Positions 42,001-48,000 of a stretch of 64,000 nt of DNA are shown one piece after another. The stretch comes from Microbacterium sp. (GTDB lineage Bacteria; Actinomycetota; Actinomycetes; Actinomycetales; Microbacteriaceae), in assembly GCF_031180975.1 (NCBI RefSeq), contig NZ_JAPSLI010000001.1, positions 463,197-527,196 of the forward strand, read 5' to 3'. The position numbers are program-made. Within the stretch, counting starts at the first letter, position 1, and each line of letters starts with the position of its first letter.

Positions 42001-45000
42001 GCGGGCGAGGTTGATCGAGTTGACCGCGCCGAGATGCTGGGCGCGCTTGAACTCCAGGTCGCCGGCGAGCGCCTTGACGAGGTTCTGGCAGTCGTCGAAC
42101 ACGCCCTCGACGGCGATGTTGTGGATGTTCGCATCCTGCAGCGAGTACATCTGTGCACGCTGGAACGGGCTCATCCGACCCTGCGGCGACAGCATGAAGA
42201 CCGAGACACGGTCCTTGCCGCGCAGCGCGTGCTCGGCAGCCGATCCGGTGTCGCCCGACGTCGCGCCGAGGATGTTGAGCACGCTGTCCTTCTTCTCCAG
42301 CACGTACTCGAGGATCTGGCCGAGGAACTGCATGGCCATGTCCTTGAACGCCAGCGTCGGGCCCTCCGACAGCCCCACCAGCGTGATCCCCCCGCCGATC
42401 GACCGCAGCGGCACGACACCGTCGGGGAAGTCGGCGTAGGCCGCCTCGCACATGCGGGCGAGATCCTCGCGCGGGATGTCGGTGGCGAACAACGCCAGCA
42501 CCTCGGTGGCCAGCTGCGAATAGCTGAGCCCGCGCCACGACTCCAGAGTGGCGGCGTCGACCGTCGGCAGCTGCTCCGGGACGGCCAGACCGCCGTCGGG
42601 AGCGAGCCCCTCGAGCAGCGTCTCGCTGAACGGCTGCGGCTGCATGCCGCCGCGGGTGGAGATGTACTGCACGGGGACTCCTCGGAGGTCGACGCTCGGA
42701 GGTTCCATTCTCGCAGGCCCGTCGCGGCGGCGAGGCCGGATGACGGATGCCGCAGACCGCGGCCTACGTCGCGCGTGCACGATCGTCAACCCGGTGGCGC
42801 GCGGGGGTCGCCGCTGGTGGTGTGTCGGTATGACTGCAGACACCGATCCCCCGCTCGCCCGCGCATCCGCGGCAGCGGTGCCGGAGATCGCCGGCGACGC
42901 GACCCTGCGTCTCCTTCGCGACGGCTATCTGTTCGGCACGCGTCTGTTCCGAGACGCCGGAGCGGATGCCGTCCGCACCCGCCTTCTCGGCAGGCCGGCG
43001 CTCATCGCCCGCGGCGCCGAGGCCGCGCATGTCTTCGGGACGCCCGGCCTGTTCGCCCGTTCGGGTGCGCTCCCCCGCTCGGTCGTGCACCTGCTCCAGG
43101 ACGAGGGGAGCGTGCAGTCCCTGGAGGGTGGCGCCCACGACGCCCGCAAGGCGCTGATGCTCAGCATCGCGAACGACGACCGCGCCCGGCTGGTCGAGCT
43201 GTTCGAGGAGGAATGGCAGCGGGCGTTCGACCGCGAACGCGGCACGACGGTGAGCCTGCTCGATCTCAGCTCTCGCGTGCTCGCCCGGGCCGCGCTGCGG
43301 TGGGTGGGCGCCGACGACGCCGCCGGCGACGCGCAGCTGGCGAGGGACCTGCGTGCCATGATCGACCGGGCGTCCGCCCTGGGCCCCCTCAACTGGTGGG
43401 CTCGCGCCCGCCGGCTGCGGGTCGAAGGCTGGGCCGCTGATCGGATCGAAGGGGCACGCCGCGACACCGACACCAGCACCGCGATCGGCCGCCTCGCCCA
43501 TCATGTCGAGAACGGGTCGCCGCTGCCGACGGATGCCGCGGTCGTGGAGCTGCTGAACCTGCTCCGGCCCGTGGTGGCGGTGGCGCGGTTCGTCGCCTTC
43601 GCCGGTCACGCCCTGCACCGGCATCCGGAATGGACCGAACGACTTCGCGGCGGCGAGGTCACACCCGCGCCGTGGATCGCCGAGGAGGTGCGCCGCTTCT
43701 ATCCGTTCTTCCCCATGATCGCCGGCATCGCGACCGACGGGTTCGACCTCGCCGGCACGCGATTCCCCCACGGCCAGTGGATGCTGTTCGATCTGTACGG
43801 CACCGACCACTCGTCTGCGCTGTGGGAGAGCCCGAACTCGTTCGATCCGCAGCGGTTCGCGACCGCGTCCCCGCACCTCGTCGTCGCGCAGGGCGTGGGC
43901 GACCCGACCTCGGCGCACCACTGCCCCGGCGAGCAGGCGACCACGGATCTGCTGGCGTCGGCGGTGTGGCTGCTCGCCACCGGACCGATGTACCGGGTGC
44001 CGGAGCAGGATCTGCGGATCAGCCTGCGGCGCATTCCCGCGCAACCGCAGAGCGGCATGCTGATCGAACTGCCCGCCTAGCCTTCTCCGCTTTCGAATCG
44101 ACCTGACGGGAGGGTCAGCAGGTGAGCACCTCGATCGCCTTCTGGAAGACGAGCGTCTGGGCGACCTCGACCGCTCGGTCGTACCGGGTGCCGCGGAGTA
44201 CGACGAACACTGCCCCGACGACGTCGACGAAACCGGCGACCCGCTCACCGTCGAGCACGACGTACCGCTCCGGCGCGACGCGCTCCCACCTGATCACCTG
44301 ATCCGGTTCCGGCTCGGACGGTGCCCGCCGGGTGGGAAGCTCCTGCAGTGCAGGCAGCGCGTCGGCCGTGATCCTGTGAACATCGATCAAGACCATGGCA
44401 CCCTCCTAGAACCCGCCCTCTCCCCACACTCAGCATGCGCCGCCGACCCGCACATGTCTCCGGGGTTGACCCGCGGCCCGCGGAAGGGTAGGGGTTTCCG
44501 AGGAGGCGGGAAACGCTTGCTCGGAAGAGGCTGGAGATGACGCGATCGCGAGCGCGAAGGGGCGGGAATGCCCGACAATCGCGCTCGCGACCGTAGCGCT
44601 GGGGACGCTGATCAGAGCACTGGGGACGCTCCGGTCAGCCATTACGCTAGTCAACCCGGAGGTCGGGCAATAGAACCCAATGGCCATACTCCATTGGACT
44701 TTCGTCGTACGTCGGGACAGTCGGCGACGGCATCCGTTCGATCAGCTCACGGTAGGAGCGTTCGTGCGCGGCCGGCGTCAGGCGACCGGCAACCGCGCGG
44801 AAACCCGCCAACGGCCATCGACCTCGCCGGCGGAGAAGTCGCCGCTCGCACCGAGGACGCGCTCGGCCATGCGCCCGAGGCCGGTGCGGCTGGAGGACAG
44901 TTCCTTCCGCGGCGTGGTGGGCAGCGGGCTGTCGATGGTGAGGTGTGCGGCATCGTCCTCGATGCGCAGCCGGATGCCGATCGCGCCGCCGCCGGCGTAC

Positions 45001-48000
45001 TTGAGGATGTTGGTGACCGACTCGCGCACCACCCGCGCGAAGATGATCTCCCCGGCCCTGGTCAGCCGCTCATCGCGGAACTCGCCCTCGCAGACCACCT
45101 CGTGCCCGGCGGCCTCGAGTTCGCCGCGCGCTTCGGCCACGGCCTCCTCCAGGTCTCCGGTCTGCATGCCTGGAGCGCTCGGCGCGTCGTCCGCGAGTTC
45201 GATCACGAATCGCAGGTCGGCCATGGCCTTCTTCGCGGCGACGCGGATCGCCTCCTGCGACGCTGGGCGCGCCTCTCCGTCGTCCAGCAGCTGCACGTGC
45301 AGCGACACGACGGTGAGGTGGTGCGCAATGCTGTCGTGCAGTTCGCCGGCGATCCATCGGCGCTCGGCGAGGACGGCTTCCCGCTCCTGCCGCGCCTTCT
45401 CGGCGAGCTCCTGCTCGAGTCGGCGGCCGCGAGCGGATGCCATCCGCAGGGCGAATCCGATCGCCCCCGCGACCGTTGCGACGATGAGGTAGATGCCCAC
45501 GTTCACCGGGACGGCCCGGTCGAGCGTGGCGATGATTCCGGCGGCGACGAGAAAGGCCGCCGTGTAGACGAGGATCAGGGACGTCCAGCCCAGGCGCATG
45601 ATGAGCGCCGCGGCGACGGCCGCCGCCAGCAGGGTCTGCGGTTGGGTCTCGGTGAAGAACGAGAGCGCCAGCATGCTGCCGAGCATGCATGTGGCGACGA
45701 GGGGCGACCAGAGATACAGCGCGAACGCGGCGCTCGTGGCGATGCTGAGCAACGACACGAGGATGTCGGCTCTCGGTGTGAAGAGAAGCTCGAAGAGGTC
45801 CACGGAGGCGACGCCCACGAGGACGACGAGAACGACGATCCGCTCGATGCGGGTCAGACGCTCGCCCCGGCCCAGCCGGAGCGGACCCGCTTCATCCTGA
45901 GACGACCGGCTCAAGGCCATGTTCCGCTATCTCCTGTTCGGCGATACTCTAGCGAAGGATGCCCAGAAGGATGCAGAGCTGGTGCCAAAAGGTCATGGTG
46001 ATTCACCTCCCTACCTGGTCTTTTGTCGAGACATAGTTACATCTTCTCGGTTGAGCCGGATTTGCACATCTGACCAGCGACCAGACTTCTCTAGACAAAG
46101 GTCTAATGGCCCACCGGCCTGTGGTCAGGGCCGCACCCCCGATAGGCTTGCGTCATGCCGGATATCCGCGTCCTGATCGTCGACGACGATCCCCTGGTGC
46201 GCACCGCGCTGGCGCATTTCGTGGCGCGCGATCCCGACATCCAGGTCATCGGGCAGGCGGAGGACGGCAACGAGGCGATCGCCGCCGTCGAGCAGCATCG
46301 TCCCGACGTCGTGATGATGGACGTGCAGATGCCCGAGATGGACGGGATCGAGGCGACCAGGGCGATCTCCCGTCGCTGGCCGGAGGTGCGGATCCTGGCG
46401 GTGACGACCCTGGACGGCAGCGACACGGTGCTTCCCATGCTGAGCGCCGGTGCGTCCGGTTATCTGCTGAAGGACTCCAGCGCCGAGAGCATCGTCGCCG
46501 GCGTGCGCGCCGTGCACGACGGCGCGAGTTCGCTGTCGCCGAAGATCGCCTCGATGCTGATCAGACATGTGCGCGACGGGGAGTCGCAGACGTCCAACGC
46601 CGCGGAGCTCGAGCCGCTGACCGACCGTGAGGCCGAGGTGCTGCAGCGTCTCGCCCAGGGGATGTCGAACGCGGAGATCGCGCGTGCGCTCGTTGTGTCC
46701 GAGGGCACGGTCAAGGCGCACCTGGGTCGGATCATGTCGAAATGGCACGTCCGGGATCGCGTGCAGATCCTCGTGACTGCGGCGCACGCCGGGCTCGTGG
46801 ACTTCCGCTGATCGCGGCGGGCGCCGACCGCCGAGACCACTCTGACAACCACACCTGGCGAACTGTCGCCAAACAACCAAGCCATTGTCGGTAAGGGCTT
46901 GGCAGTATGATCTCGGATTTGGAGTGGCGCTCCCTGCGGGCGGATACTCATGGCATCCGCGCCACCCGACTCCGAACCCGGATCCGCCATGCCCACCGCG
47001 TCCTCCCTCGCGCCTGACACGACCATCGCCGTCATCGGCGCGGGTCGCCTCGGCACAGTGCTCGCCGGGGCTCTGCGTGCCGCCGGCTTCGACGTGCGCG
47101 GCCCGCTGCGGCGTGACCACGCGATCCCCGAGAGCGACGTGGCACTGCTCTGCGTCCCCGACGAGGCTATCCCGGCTGCGGCCGCGGATGCCGCGACCGC
47201 CGCACAGTCGGTCGGTCACGTGTCCGGCGCCACGGGACTGGACGCCGTCGACTTCAGCATCCATCCCCTGCAGACCTTCACTGGCAGCGAACCGCCCGAG
47301 GTGCTCCACGGCATCGGCGCCGCCGTCGACGCGCGCACGCCCGCCGCGCGGAGCGTCGCCGAGCAACTCGTCAGGGTCCTCGGAATGACACCGTTCGAGG
47401 TCGGGGATCGGGCCGGTTACCACGCCGCGGCGTCCGTCGCGTCGAACTTCGTCCTCACGGTGCTCGACGCGGCCGAGGGGCTGGCGATCGCCGCGGGCAT
47501 CCGGAACGCGCGCGACGTCCTCGCCCCGCTGGTGGGCCGGACCGTCCAGAACTGGCGAGAGCACGGAGCCGCGAACGCTCTCACCGGGCCCATCGTCCGC
47601 GGCGACGAGGCGACCGTCACCCGCCAGCGCACTGCCGTCGCCGCCATGGGAAGGCCGGAGCTGACCGGACTCTTCGATGCGCTCACCACCGCCACCCGCG
47701 CCCTCGCGCGGGAGCAGTCCGAGACGGCTGGAAGGGGGCAGCCATGAGAATCCTCCGCACGATCCGCGAGGTGCGCTCCGCCGTCAGCGAGGCGCGACGC
47801 GACGGCCGAACCGTCGGCCTCGTCCCGACGATGGGCGCGTTCCACGAGGGTCACCTCTCGCTGATGCGCGCCGCCCGCAAGGACACCGATCTCGTGGTGG
47901 TGTCGCTCTTCGTCAACCCCACCCAGTTCGCACCGAACGAGGACCTCAGCACCTACCCGCGCGACGAGCAGCGCGATGCGGAGCTGGCGGCGGGCGAGCA

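Follow-up and report, generated by a model that had tools for sequence, protein, structure and literature searches.

A conserved 15-codon reading frame ahead of a sensor histidine kinase gene in Microbacterium, a candidate source of a peptide ligand

In a 64,000-nucleotide stretch of a Microbacterium sp. genome (positions 463,197 to 527,196 of contig NZ_JAPSLI010000001.1; the window), a short open reading frame (sORF) of 15 codons lies on the minus strand directly ahead of the gene for a sensor histidine kinase, with a NarL/GerE-type response regulator encoded divergently. Comparison of orthologous loci indicates that this sORF is very probably a real, previously unannotated protein-coding gene. 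As a genetic unit, a peptide-kinase-regulator module appears well supported. For the role of the peptide, we tentatively favor a signaling loop in which it is exported as an autoinducer and acts as the cognate ligand of the adjacent kinase.

Conservation of the sORF among orthologous loci

An earlier note on this DNA, made from the window sequence alone, had described a Shine-Dalgarno (SD) site, a 6-nt spacing, a 15-codon frame, and a 28-nt gap to the kinase gene, and the window sequence shows all four as described. The frame opens with ATG at 45996 and reads ACC TTT TGG CAC CAG CTC TGC ATC CTT CTG GGC ATC CTT CGC, with TAG ending at 45949 on the minus strand. The elements of the locus are as follows.

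45949..45996, minus strand: sORF, 15 codons plus TAG, product MTFWHQLCILLGILR (window sequence)
46003..46012, minus strand: SD site AGGGAGGTGA, 6 nt ahead of the sORF ATG, conserved in orthologues
45921..45948, minus strand: spacer between sORF and kinase gene, 28 nt, conserved, containing AGGAG and GATAGC (alignment)
44778..45920, minus strand: sensor histidine kinase, 380 amino acids (aa), ATG at 45920, Pfam HisKA_3 only
46155..46811, plus strand: NarL/GerE-type response regulator, 218 aa, divergent, Pfam Response_reg and GerE

Within the SD site, GGAGGTGA is a perfect 8-nt complement to the 3' end of 16S rRNA. This octamer occurs 4 times in the 64-kb window against 2.5 occurrences expected, which is within chance, and on the window alone an SD site followed by a 15-codon frame is not beyond chance either. 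The significance of the sORF comes from comparison across orthologous loci, not from window statistics.

The orthologous set comprised 20 distinct loci with upstream DNA, obtained from a genome scan (L001, Microbacterium aerolatum), from five kinase homologues (L005 to L008 and L025), and from a metagenome scan with the sensor-domain alignment (L009 to L024). All named close homologues of the kinase are from Microbacterium, and the sensor domains of the 20 loci are 44 to 76% identical pairwise. The sORF is found at the equivalent position in 20/20 loci, with 15 codons in 18 and 13 codons in 2, and its stop lies 28 to 35 nt before the kinase ATG in every one. The earlier note had named the lack of a conserved short frame with an SD site upstream of orthologous kinases as evidence that would speak against it; both are present in all 20, and the frame shows the marks of purifying selection. 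The sORF alignment contains no indels, whereas the surrounding intergenic DNA does. The ribosome binding site is kept in all orthologues at 5 to 7 nt from the ATG, as GGAGGTGA, GGTGGTGA, or GAGGTGA (G(G/A)GGTGA or GGTGGTGA). In-frame stops lie a few codons upstream of the sORF, which therefore has no longer precursor.

The encoded peptides (for example, MTFWEQLARALGIIR, MSFWQQVGKLFGLYR, MSFWEQFGRFFGLYR, MSIWELLARVLGIFR, and MTFWQMMAKAFGF) follow the consensus M-[TS]-[FI]-W-[QEDH]-[QM..]-hydrophobic-[GAC]-[KRH..]-x-[FLI]-G-[LIF]-x-[RG]. M1, W4, and G12 are invariant (20/20), position 8 is G, A, or C, position 9 is K, R, or H in 16/20 loci, and positions 3, 7, 11, and 13 are hydrophobic. Variation in the alignment is that of a translated frame. 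Mean column entropy is 0.97, 0.49, and 1.04 for codon positions 1, 2, and 3, respectively, with position 2 the lowest (permutation P = 0.007), and the pooled ratio of nonsynonymous to synonymous polymorphism (pN/pS) is 0.47 in the sORF frame versus 0.81 and 1.48 for the two remaining frames. The alignment includes synonymous changes (TTT/TTC, GGC/GGT, and CTC/CTG), the stop alternates between TAG and TAA, and conservative amino acid replacements occur with altered codons. An alternative 31-codon frame with a GTG start (46006..45911), which overlaps the kinase start, was rejected: pN/pS is 1.48 in its frame, and its start would need a variable spacing between SD site and ATG.

In the two 13-codon variants (L016:1124-1171 and L020:1124-1171), a stop (TAA and TGA, respectively) stands at codon 14 and the ancestral TAG is retained at codon 16; the last two residues therefore seem dispensable or recently lost.

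The sORF had also been called unannotated, and among the public loci for which gene calls were given, none has a called gene in the interval from regulator to kinase. Pfam matches confirmed the HisKA_3 kinase and the divergent NarL-type regulator that the earlier note had described, and the intergenic DNA is low in GC, again as described (48 to 56% GC versus ∼70% around it); matches of the regulator to the NCBIfam models NarL and MadR were below cutoff. The divergent pairing of kinase and regulator is kept in all orthologous loci with enough flanking sequence, and the gene content beyond the pair varies among loci. What is conserved is thus the set of sORF, kinase, and divergent regulator.

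The kinase, the peptide, and their paralogues

In the AlphaFold2 (AF2) model of the kinase (41 homologues; mean predicted local distance difference test score [pLDDT], 79.8), helices occupy residues 24 to 47, 53 to 70, 73 to 90, 93 to 110, 113 to 133, and 141 to 213, the sixth of which (141 onward) runs into the dimerization and histidine phosphotransfer (DHp) helix. The six transmembrane helices span residues 24 to 165 (window ∼45426-45851), and with the basic N terminus taken as inside, the modeled loops on the outside measure 5, 2, and 7 residues. Loops of this size are too short for a binding domain, suggesting a ligand site within the membrane; on this model, the description of the kinase as intramembrane sensing seems fair. 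The catalytic core is HisKA_3/DesK-like, with DesK the best match in the PDB both by sequence and by fold, and a fold search with the kinase model found this core alone, with no match to the sensor bundle. The bundle defines a narrow family of 32 clusters (50% identity) at E ≤ 1e-3 among 1.84 billion representatives.

The peptide had been described as hydrophobic, a property that proved not to be conserved. The window peptide is the hydrophobic extreme of the family, with a grand average of hydropathy (GRAVY) of 1.21; most orthologues are near 0, carry a central basic residue (the K/R/H of position 9), and have a net charge of +1 or +2. Peptides of 13 to 16 residues cannot span a bilayer. An MgrB-like membrane anchor is unlikely because 15 residues are too few to cross the membrane and hydrophobicity is not conserved, and for a membrane-spanning modulator of the MgrB/SafA type, the comparison drawn in the earlier note, the peptide is likewise too short.

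More distant relatives of the sensor domain (35 to 45% identity) are paralogues in Microbacterium and nearby Actinomycetota. Members of one paralogue clade (L027 and L031) have a homologous sORF of 16 codons with an SD site, 66 to 75 nt before the kinase gene, encoding MPGIWSYMCQVMGICS and MAGIWTYMCQFLGVCS. These 16-mers follow the pattern hydrophobic-W-x2-hydrophobic-small-x3-G-hydrophobic-x2-stop, with the same W-to-G spacing as in the 15-mers. A second clade (L032 to L034, from Actinomycetota metagenome bins) has in this place a called gene of 71 aa, MSKRRMSGAAAGFVLVLVVTTGGALQPGAVSQPHGASPAGKHAAGWSLVQAETGPQQVFWDRLCRMLGLCG, which ends 31 nt before the kinase gene. The last 13 residues of its product are the sORF motif (FWDRLCRMLGLCG versus FWEQLARALGIIR), with the C terminus VFW[DE]RLCRML[GR]LCG. 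At its N terminus, a KRR n-region is followed by a 16-residue hydrophobic stretch, which on inspection, rather than by a predictor, looks like a Sec-type signal peptide. In the three known variants of the 71-aa protein, both ends are conserved and the middle is variable. A Cys-x5-Cys pair is common to the 71-aa form and the 16-mers, at the positions that correspond to 8 and 14 of the main family, which lacks the pair. The pair suggests a disulfide formed outside the cell, and the motif is predicted to act outside the cytoplasm in the 71-aa clade. A regular expression for the motif, derived from these same sequences, gave one match per kinase locus and none elsewhere (207 kb in six frames).

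At three paralogous loci or groups of loci, the kinase gene adjoins genes for small antimicrobial peptides. L027 has a 60-aa Lantibiotic_a precursor (3952-4134) and two ABC transporter genes (4196-6155) as neighbors, and at L029 the neighbors are a pair of aureocin-like (PF11758) genes for leaderless bacteriocins and a pair of bPH_2 genes (1795-2201 and 1-1719). L032 to L034 have an aureocin-like gene of 57 to 58 aa (a weak match), a two-helix 71-aa gene, and bPH_2 genes (L032:1-1065). The output of the paralogous modules is probably bacteriocin or lantibiotic production or immunity. Not every paralogue has a recognizable partner of this kind: no sORF was found upstream of the kinase at L030. 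At L028 (2387-2461), a dissimilar 24-codon frame, MGIRLGLLAGPFTELCKLLRICQG, with an AGGAGGG site lies 39 nt before its kinase gene; it may encode an independent peptide partner or one that has diverged strongly.

Intergenic DNA, transcripts, and flanking genes

The whole intergenic region is alignable across the orthologues. Besides the sORF and its SD site, it holds four conserved elements, one of which is the spacer between sORF and kinase gene (ACCTGGCGAATAGGAGATACTGAA). The features found upstream of the sORF are as follows.

46082..46105, no strand assigned: operator-like imperfect inverted repeat TAGACCTTTGTCTAGAGAAGTCTG, family consensus TAGACCTTTGGCCAAAAAGGTCTG (alignment)
46064..46075, minus strand: conserved box GGTCAGATGTGC, candidate promoter or second protein-binding site (alignment)
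46040..46050, minus strand: conserved box CCGAGAAGATG, in which GAAGAT and, on the other strand, CATCTT fit nAnnnT (alignment)

The conserved inverted repeat has the form TAGACCTTTGG-N5-AAGGTCT and precedes the sORF ATG by ∼110 nt and the regulator start codon by ∼50 nt; its left half, GACCTTTGG, is found at about -185 from the kinase ATG in 18/20 orthologous loci. The TAGAC-N4-GTCTA palindrome reported earlier does occur at 46105-46092, yet in only 3 loci, and is a window-specific part of this longer repeat. We consider the inverted repeat a candidate operator of the regulator. Scoring of half-sites gave a single match among the paralogous loci (GACCTTCGG in L032); by eye only, CC(G/A)AA(G/A)GTC-like half-sites can be seen in other paralogue upstream regions, including a perfect inverted repeat in L032. 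No further copy of the operator or of the sORF was found elsewhere in the 64-kb window. The first four sORF codons (ATGACCTTTTGG; 45985-45996) resemble the half-site GACCTTTGG (46095-46104) in the window and L001 only, a likeness that is probably coincidental because other orthologues use TCT/TTC codons.

No promoter of sigma-70 consensus was found by a scan of the region; GAAGAT and CATCTT in CCGAGAAGATG are candidate -10 elements of divergent promoters, and RNA contigs of related strains begin 20 to 1 nt ahead of the sORF ATG. A second putative promoter element lies in the spacer. In 23/27 family loci, an nAnnnT hexamer, mostly GATAnT (also CATAAT and CAGAGT), ends 5 to 7 nt before the kinase start, versus a background of 11%; such a -10-like hexamer also occurs in paralogues that are otherwise unlike in the spacer, and its window version is GATAGC. 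A hexamer placed in this way is a signature of the -10 box for leaderless mRNA in Actinobacteria, and the spacer is conserved in part because of it. The kinase may accordingly have two sources, read-through from the sORF and a leaderless transcript of its own. The earlier note had given the kinase its own ribosome binding site: an AGGAG is indeed present (45935-45931, minus strand, 10 nt from the kinase ATG), but it overlaps the family-wide hexamer, and a leaderless mRNA may serve as well.

The leader RNA itself yielded no sign of regulatory structure. Rfam searches at E values of up to 10 gave no match in the region apart from a chance microRNA match, RNAalifold on 18 sequences returned only a 4-bp hairpin over the sORF stop codon without covariation, and the window leader folded no better than shuffled sequences (z = +0.96); on these grounds, a structured RNA or riboswitch in the leader was ruled out. 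Nor was an attenuator or terminator found, in the window or L009, between sORF and kinase gene or directly behind the sORF. Overall, these results make it unlikely that the region holds a riboswitch, an attenuator, or an element that acts at the nucleotide level alone.

In RNA contigs of related strains, the sORF appears to be transcribed contiguously with the kinase gene; the window's organism itself was met in DNA metagenomes and in no RNA run. In seven runs, contigs that start at -20 to +7 relative to the sORF ATG continue into the kinase gene. On L023 (sORF ATG at 1124), contigs from soil metatranscriptomes X9, X11, and X13 extend from 1104, 1123, or 1131 to 1590-1646 at depths of 674 to 1773, versus 0 to 46 over the rest of the locus; contigs from runs X21 and X24 cover 1107-1691 and 1121-1791. 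On L009, transcriptome X10 has a depth of 288 upstream, 12,000 to 19,500 from 1123 to ∼1400-1425, and 491 beyond, so that the sORF-proximal ∼300 nt are 40 to 60 times deeper than both flanks. This looks like a discrete RNA species of ∼300 nt that covers the sORF and the first ∼70 kinase codons. Taken over both loci (L009:1123-1425 in X10; L023:1104-1646 in X9, X11, and X13), the short sORF-proximal RNA is 15 to 60 times deeper than the rest of the locus. Possible explanations are a 3' end formed prematurely, a stable fragment from the 5' side, or an RNA with two functions.

Two further features were seen in the L009 data. At 1619-1738 (X38 and X39), within the kinase coding region, a 118-nt depth spike of ∼4,000 stands against 300 to 600, with adapter read-through at both ends. 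At 1272 (X37), an A-tailed RNA 3' end falls at kinase codon 24.

The module in the window is flanked by housekeeping genes, with thrC (41254-42843) on one side and a pantothenate set on the other; adjoining the regulator are genes for a DUF2520 protein, panC, panD, and panB (46950-49847), and an HrpB-type helicase gene (50532-53150) lies beyond them. None of these neighbors is related to the module. Downstream of the kinase gene, one further feature was noted.

44677..44697, minus strand: 7-bp hairpin CCAAUGG-N7-CCAUUGG followed by GUUCUAUUG, 80 to 100 nt after the kinase stop in a lower-GC stretch (centroid structure)

This hairpin is a possible operon terminator, although a consensus-based terminator scan did not call it. 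Farther on, two long frames overlap on opposite strands at 42548-44248, both with a high GC content at third codon positions (GC3); the 510-aa frame on the plus strand has a weak partial P450 match, and the 494-aa frame on the minus strand has no match. A 93-aa frame with an AGGAGG site (44396-44115, minus strand) likewise has no family match.

Proposed mechanism, rival readings, and known systems

We tentatively propose the following mechanism. From a promoter in the low-GC intergenic DNA, RNA would be made through the sORF into the kinase gene, with high translation of the sORF from its near-perfect SD site. The peptide would then be exported leaderless, by a transporter whose gene lies outside the locus, a step for which there is precedent: leaderless bacteriocins, phenol-soluble modulins (PSMs), and peptides of the short hydrophobic peptide (SHP)/XIP type all leave cells without a Sec leader. 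As a short, mildly cationic, aromatic peptide (Trp4, Gly12, and small-xxx-Gly), it could enter the outer leaflet and bind the helical bundle of the kinase, which would phosphorylate the regulator. The regulator would bind the inverted repeat and alter transcription of the sORF and kinase as well as its own, giving autoinduction. A second, leaderless kinase transcript from the -10 box in the spacer may supply a basal level of receptor.

The exported-autoinducer version of the loop is preferred because in one clade the motif sits behind a signal-peptide-like segment, because two clades have the Cys pair, because paralogues are located among bacteriocin genes, where inducing peptides are classically found, and because these bacteria already export leaderless peptides. 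A broader and more doubtful reading is that a leaderless 15-residue autoinducer represents a new class of peptide quorum sensing in Microbacterium. Such an autoinducer would come off the ribosome as the finished signal, be related by descent to the C-terminal module of a Sec-secreted propeptide, and be sensed inside the membrane by a dedicated six-helix HisKA_3 kinase, with paralogous modules switching on bacteriocin or lantibiotic loci.

Several observations weigh against an exported ligand of the kinase. The Microbacterium peptides have no leader and no Cys pair, and no exporter or protease is conserved next to them at orthologous loci. What the earlier note had proposed as a peptide-kinase-regulator module stands as a genetic unit (20/20 loci, the paralogue clade, and the 71-aa precursor) but without an exporter, processing enzyme, or leader alongside it in Microbacterium. 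The window module, among its housekeeping flanks, has no bacteriocin gene nearby, and the signal peptide of the 71-aa relative was read by eye. In partial Mantel tests, peptide distances correlate with both kinase domains, and with the catalytic one no less well than with the sensor, a sign of coinheritance rather than of sensor-specific coevolution. The helical hydrophobic moment of the peptides is not above that of shuffled controls, for which reason we dropped a claim of an amphipathic helix. Finally, the RNA data come from related strains only, as assembler contigs that carry neither strand nor read ends, and the L009 strain's own transcriptomes (X37 to X39) show continuous coverage with no step at the sORF.

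Some of these points fit a cell-autonomous modulator, in which the peptide stays in the producer and tunes kinase or phosphatase activity at the inner face or in the bundle, as feedback of the MgrB/SafA-PhoQ kind controlled by the regulator and with no cell-cell signal. In its favor, the Microbacterium peptides lack a leader, a neighboring exporter, and a Cys pair, and the kinase has almost no extracytoplasmic surface, so that either leaflet could give access to a site within the membrane. The inverted repeat kept between the genes is also compatible with feedback control, and the 71-aa relative may be anchored as MgrB is, with its Cys pair outside the cell. We nevertheless consider this reading unlikely, if a serious contender. 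A 15-residue peptide cannot cross the bilayer and most orthologues carry K, R, or H in midpeptide, the ∼16-residue hydrophobic segment after KRR resembles a signal peptide that is cleaved off more than it does an anchor, and the bacteriocin links of the paralogues fit pheromone-type control better.

Another reading makes the sORF a cis-acting upstream frame whose translation, or nascent-chain arrest, sets the level of the kinase by coupling, reinitiation, or mRNA protection, with no function for the released peptide. The short distance of the stop from the kinase start in all main-family loci (28 to 35 nt), the highly conserved spacer, a very strong SD site that could load ribosomes, an sORF GC3 below that of the kinase, and sORF-proximal RNA far in excess of the kinase body in some data sets are all compatible with it. 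What makes it improbable is that selection acts on the amino acid sequence and not only on the reading frame, with the conserved residues N-terminal and central and the last two lost in the 13-codon variants. There is, moreover, no conserved terminator or structure that would sequester the ribosome binding site, the paralogues keep the peptide despite gaps of 66 to 75 nt, the motif is also the C terminus of a signal-peptide-like 71-aa protein, and a leaderless mRNA for the kinase seems to be provided for by a separate -10 box.

Slightly less probable again is that the peptide is an output of the two-component system with a role of its own (membrane active, antimicrobial, or as cofactor of some other membrane protein), without acting on the kinase itself. 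Paralogous kinases do adjoin genes for small antimicrobial peptides, and the peptide is small, aromatic, and cationic. Its strict place directly upstream of the kinase gene in three clades with otherwise differing neighborhoods and its apparent cotranscription with that gene (as contigs) speak against such a role, and 15 residues with a net charge of +1 or +2 and an unremarkable amphipathic moment would make a poor antimicrobial. That the sORF is no gene at all, being a DNA operator or RNA element in which one frame is open by chance, has in its favor the nucleotide-level conservation of the spacer and other intergenic boxes and the half-site-like first codons in the window and L001, but it can be set aside as very improbable, given three-base periodicity, frame-specific pN/pS, constant length, conserved ATG, SD site, and stop, conservative replacements with changed codons, the lack of an Rfam match or covarying structure, and the homologous motif inside the longer called gene of 71 aa.

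The module can be set beside several known systems. In the three-component systems of Firmicutes (plnABCD, sppIP-K-R, comCDE, blpC-H-R, and agrBDCA), a peptide gene lies upstream of, and is cotranscribed with, the gene of a kinase that has five to seven short-looped helices; the inducing peptides are of similar size and cationic, are linked to bacteriocins, and act through an autoregulatory promoter site. In the Microbacterium module, too, the peptide gene lies next to the kinase gene and on its strand (28 to 35 nt; 66 to 75 nt in the paralogues and 31 nt in the 71-aa clade), the sensor is a helix bundle with short loops, the inverted repeat is a candidate autoregulatory site, and, for the paralogues only, bacteriocin loci are the setting. 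It differs in that its kinase is HisKA_3/DesK-like, not HPK10 (AgrC/ComD), its regulator is of the NarL/GerE and not the LytTR type and is divergent, its frame has only 13 to 16 codons, its host is an actinobacterium, and its locus has no double-glycine leader, ComAB-type exporter, or AgrB.

The ComQXPA system of Bacillus subtilis combines a polytopic HisKA_3 kinase with a NarL-type regulator and a pheromone gene directly upstream of the kinase gene, and its pheromone has an essential Trp. A six-helix HisKA_3 kinase, a NarL-type regulator, and an invariant Trp4 (20/20) are found here as well. However, ComX is a precursor of ∼55 aa, ComP has 8 to 10 helices and larger loops, and comA lies downstream on the same strand, whereas the frame here has 15 codons, the regulator is divergent, and no ComQ-like isoprenyl transferase was found around the window module or in any orthologous locus.

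Like the Phr, PapR, NprX, and AimP propeptides, the 71-aa relative has a signal-peptide-like N terminus, a variable middle, and conserved C-terminal 13 to 15 residues, which here match the Microbacterium sORF product. Those signals are reimported and bind cytoplasmic RRNPP receptors, whereas the partner here is a membrane kinase and the Microbacterium form has no signal peptide. The SHP/Rgg and ComS/ComR systems, PSMs, and leaderless class II bacteriocins have frames of 17 to 25 codons or are leaderless and use dedicated ABC export without a Sec signal. SHP/Rgg and ComRS resemble the present module in pairing a very short frame that lacks a Sec signal with an adjacent gene for a candidate receptor, but their partner is cytoplasmic Rgg or ComR, with PptAB export and Opp import, and not a membrane histidine kinase. 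No exporter of the PptAB/Pmt type has been linked with the module, and no search aimed at such transporter genes was made.

With MgrB-PhoQ, SafA-PhoQ, and PmrR, the module would share a small protein dedicated to one kinase and possible feedback. MgrB combines a hydrophobic segment near its N terminus with a Cys pair on the outside, and the 71-aa relative is MgrB-like in build. Those proteins, however, form a full transmembrane helix and are usually encoded apart from the kinase, whereas the 15-mer is too short and usually has a central basic residue. Leader and arrest peptides (TnaC, SecM, and Erm) differ in two respects: no alternative RNA structure, terminator, or hairpin sequestering the ribosome binding site is present here, and conservation is not concentrated on the residues closest to the peptidyl transferase center, since M1, W4, and G12 are invariant, with the last two residues variable or, in the 13-codon variants, missing.

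Peptide-kinase-regulator signaling is textbook material for Firmicutes and, to our knowledge, almost unheard of in Actinobacteria. We found no description of this sORF-kinase-regulator module in the literature searched, which agrees with its having been called undescribed in this lineage. A 2016 review knew of no evidence for quorum sensing in Microbacterium, "not even bioinformatic" (PMC4748050). If the autoinducer reading is true, this would be the first peptide-based cell-cell signaling in the Microbacteriaceae, with one of the smallest ribosomal signals that has a kinase as receptor. If the peptide is the ligand, an orphan family of intramembrane-sensing kinases would gain a known and synthesizable ligand, the 71-aa secreted precursor, the 16-mer with a Cys pair, and the 15-mer without one would form a natural series showing leader loss, and there would be a way into how bacteriocins and lantibiotics of actinobacteria are controlled. 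The sORF would then also be a clear case of a functional 15-codon gene overlooked by gene callers. By analogy, the module would work most like the inducing-peptide systems of class II bacteriocins and competence and like ComX-ComP-ComA, yet it is a member of neither.

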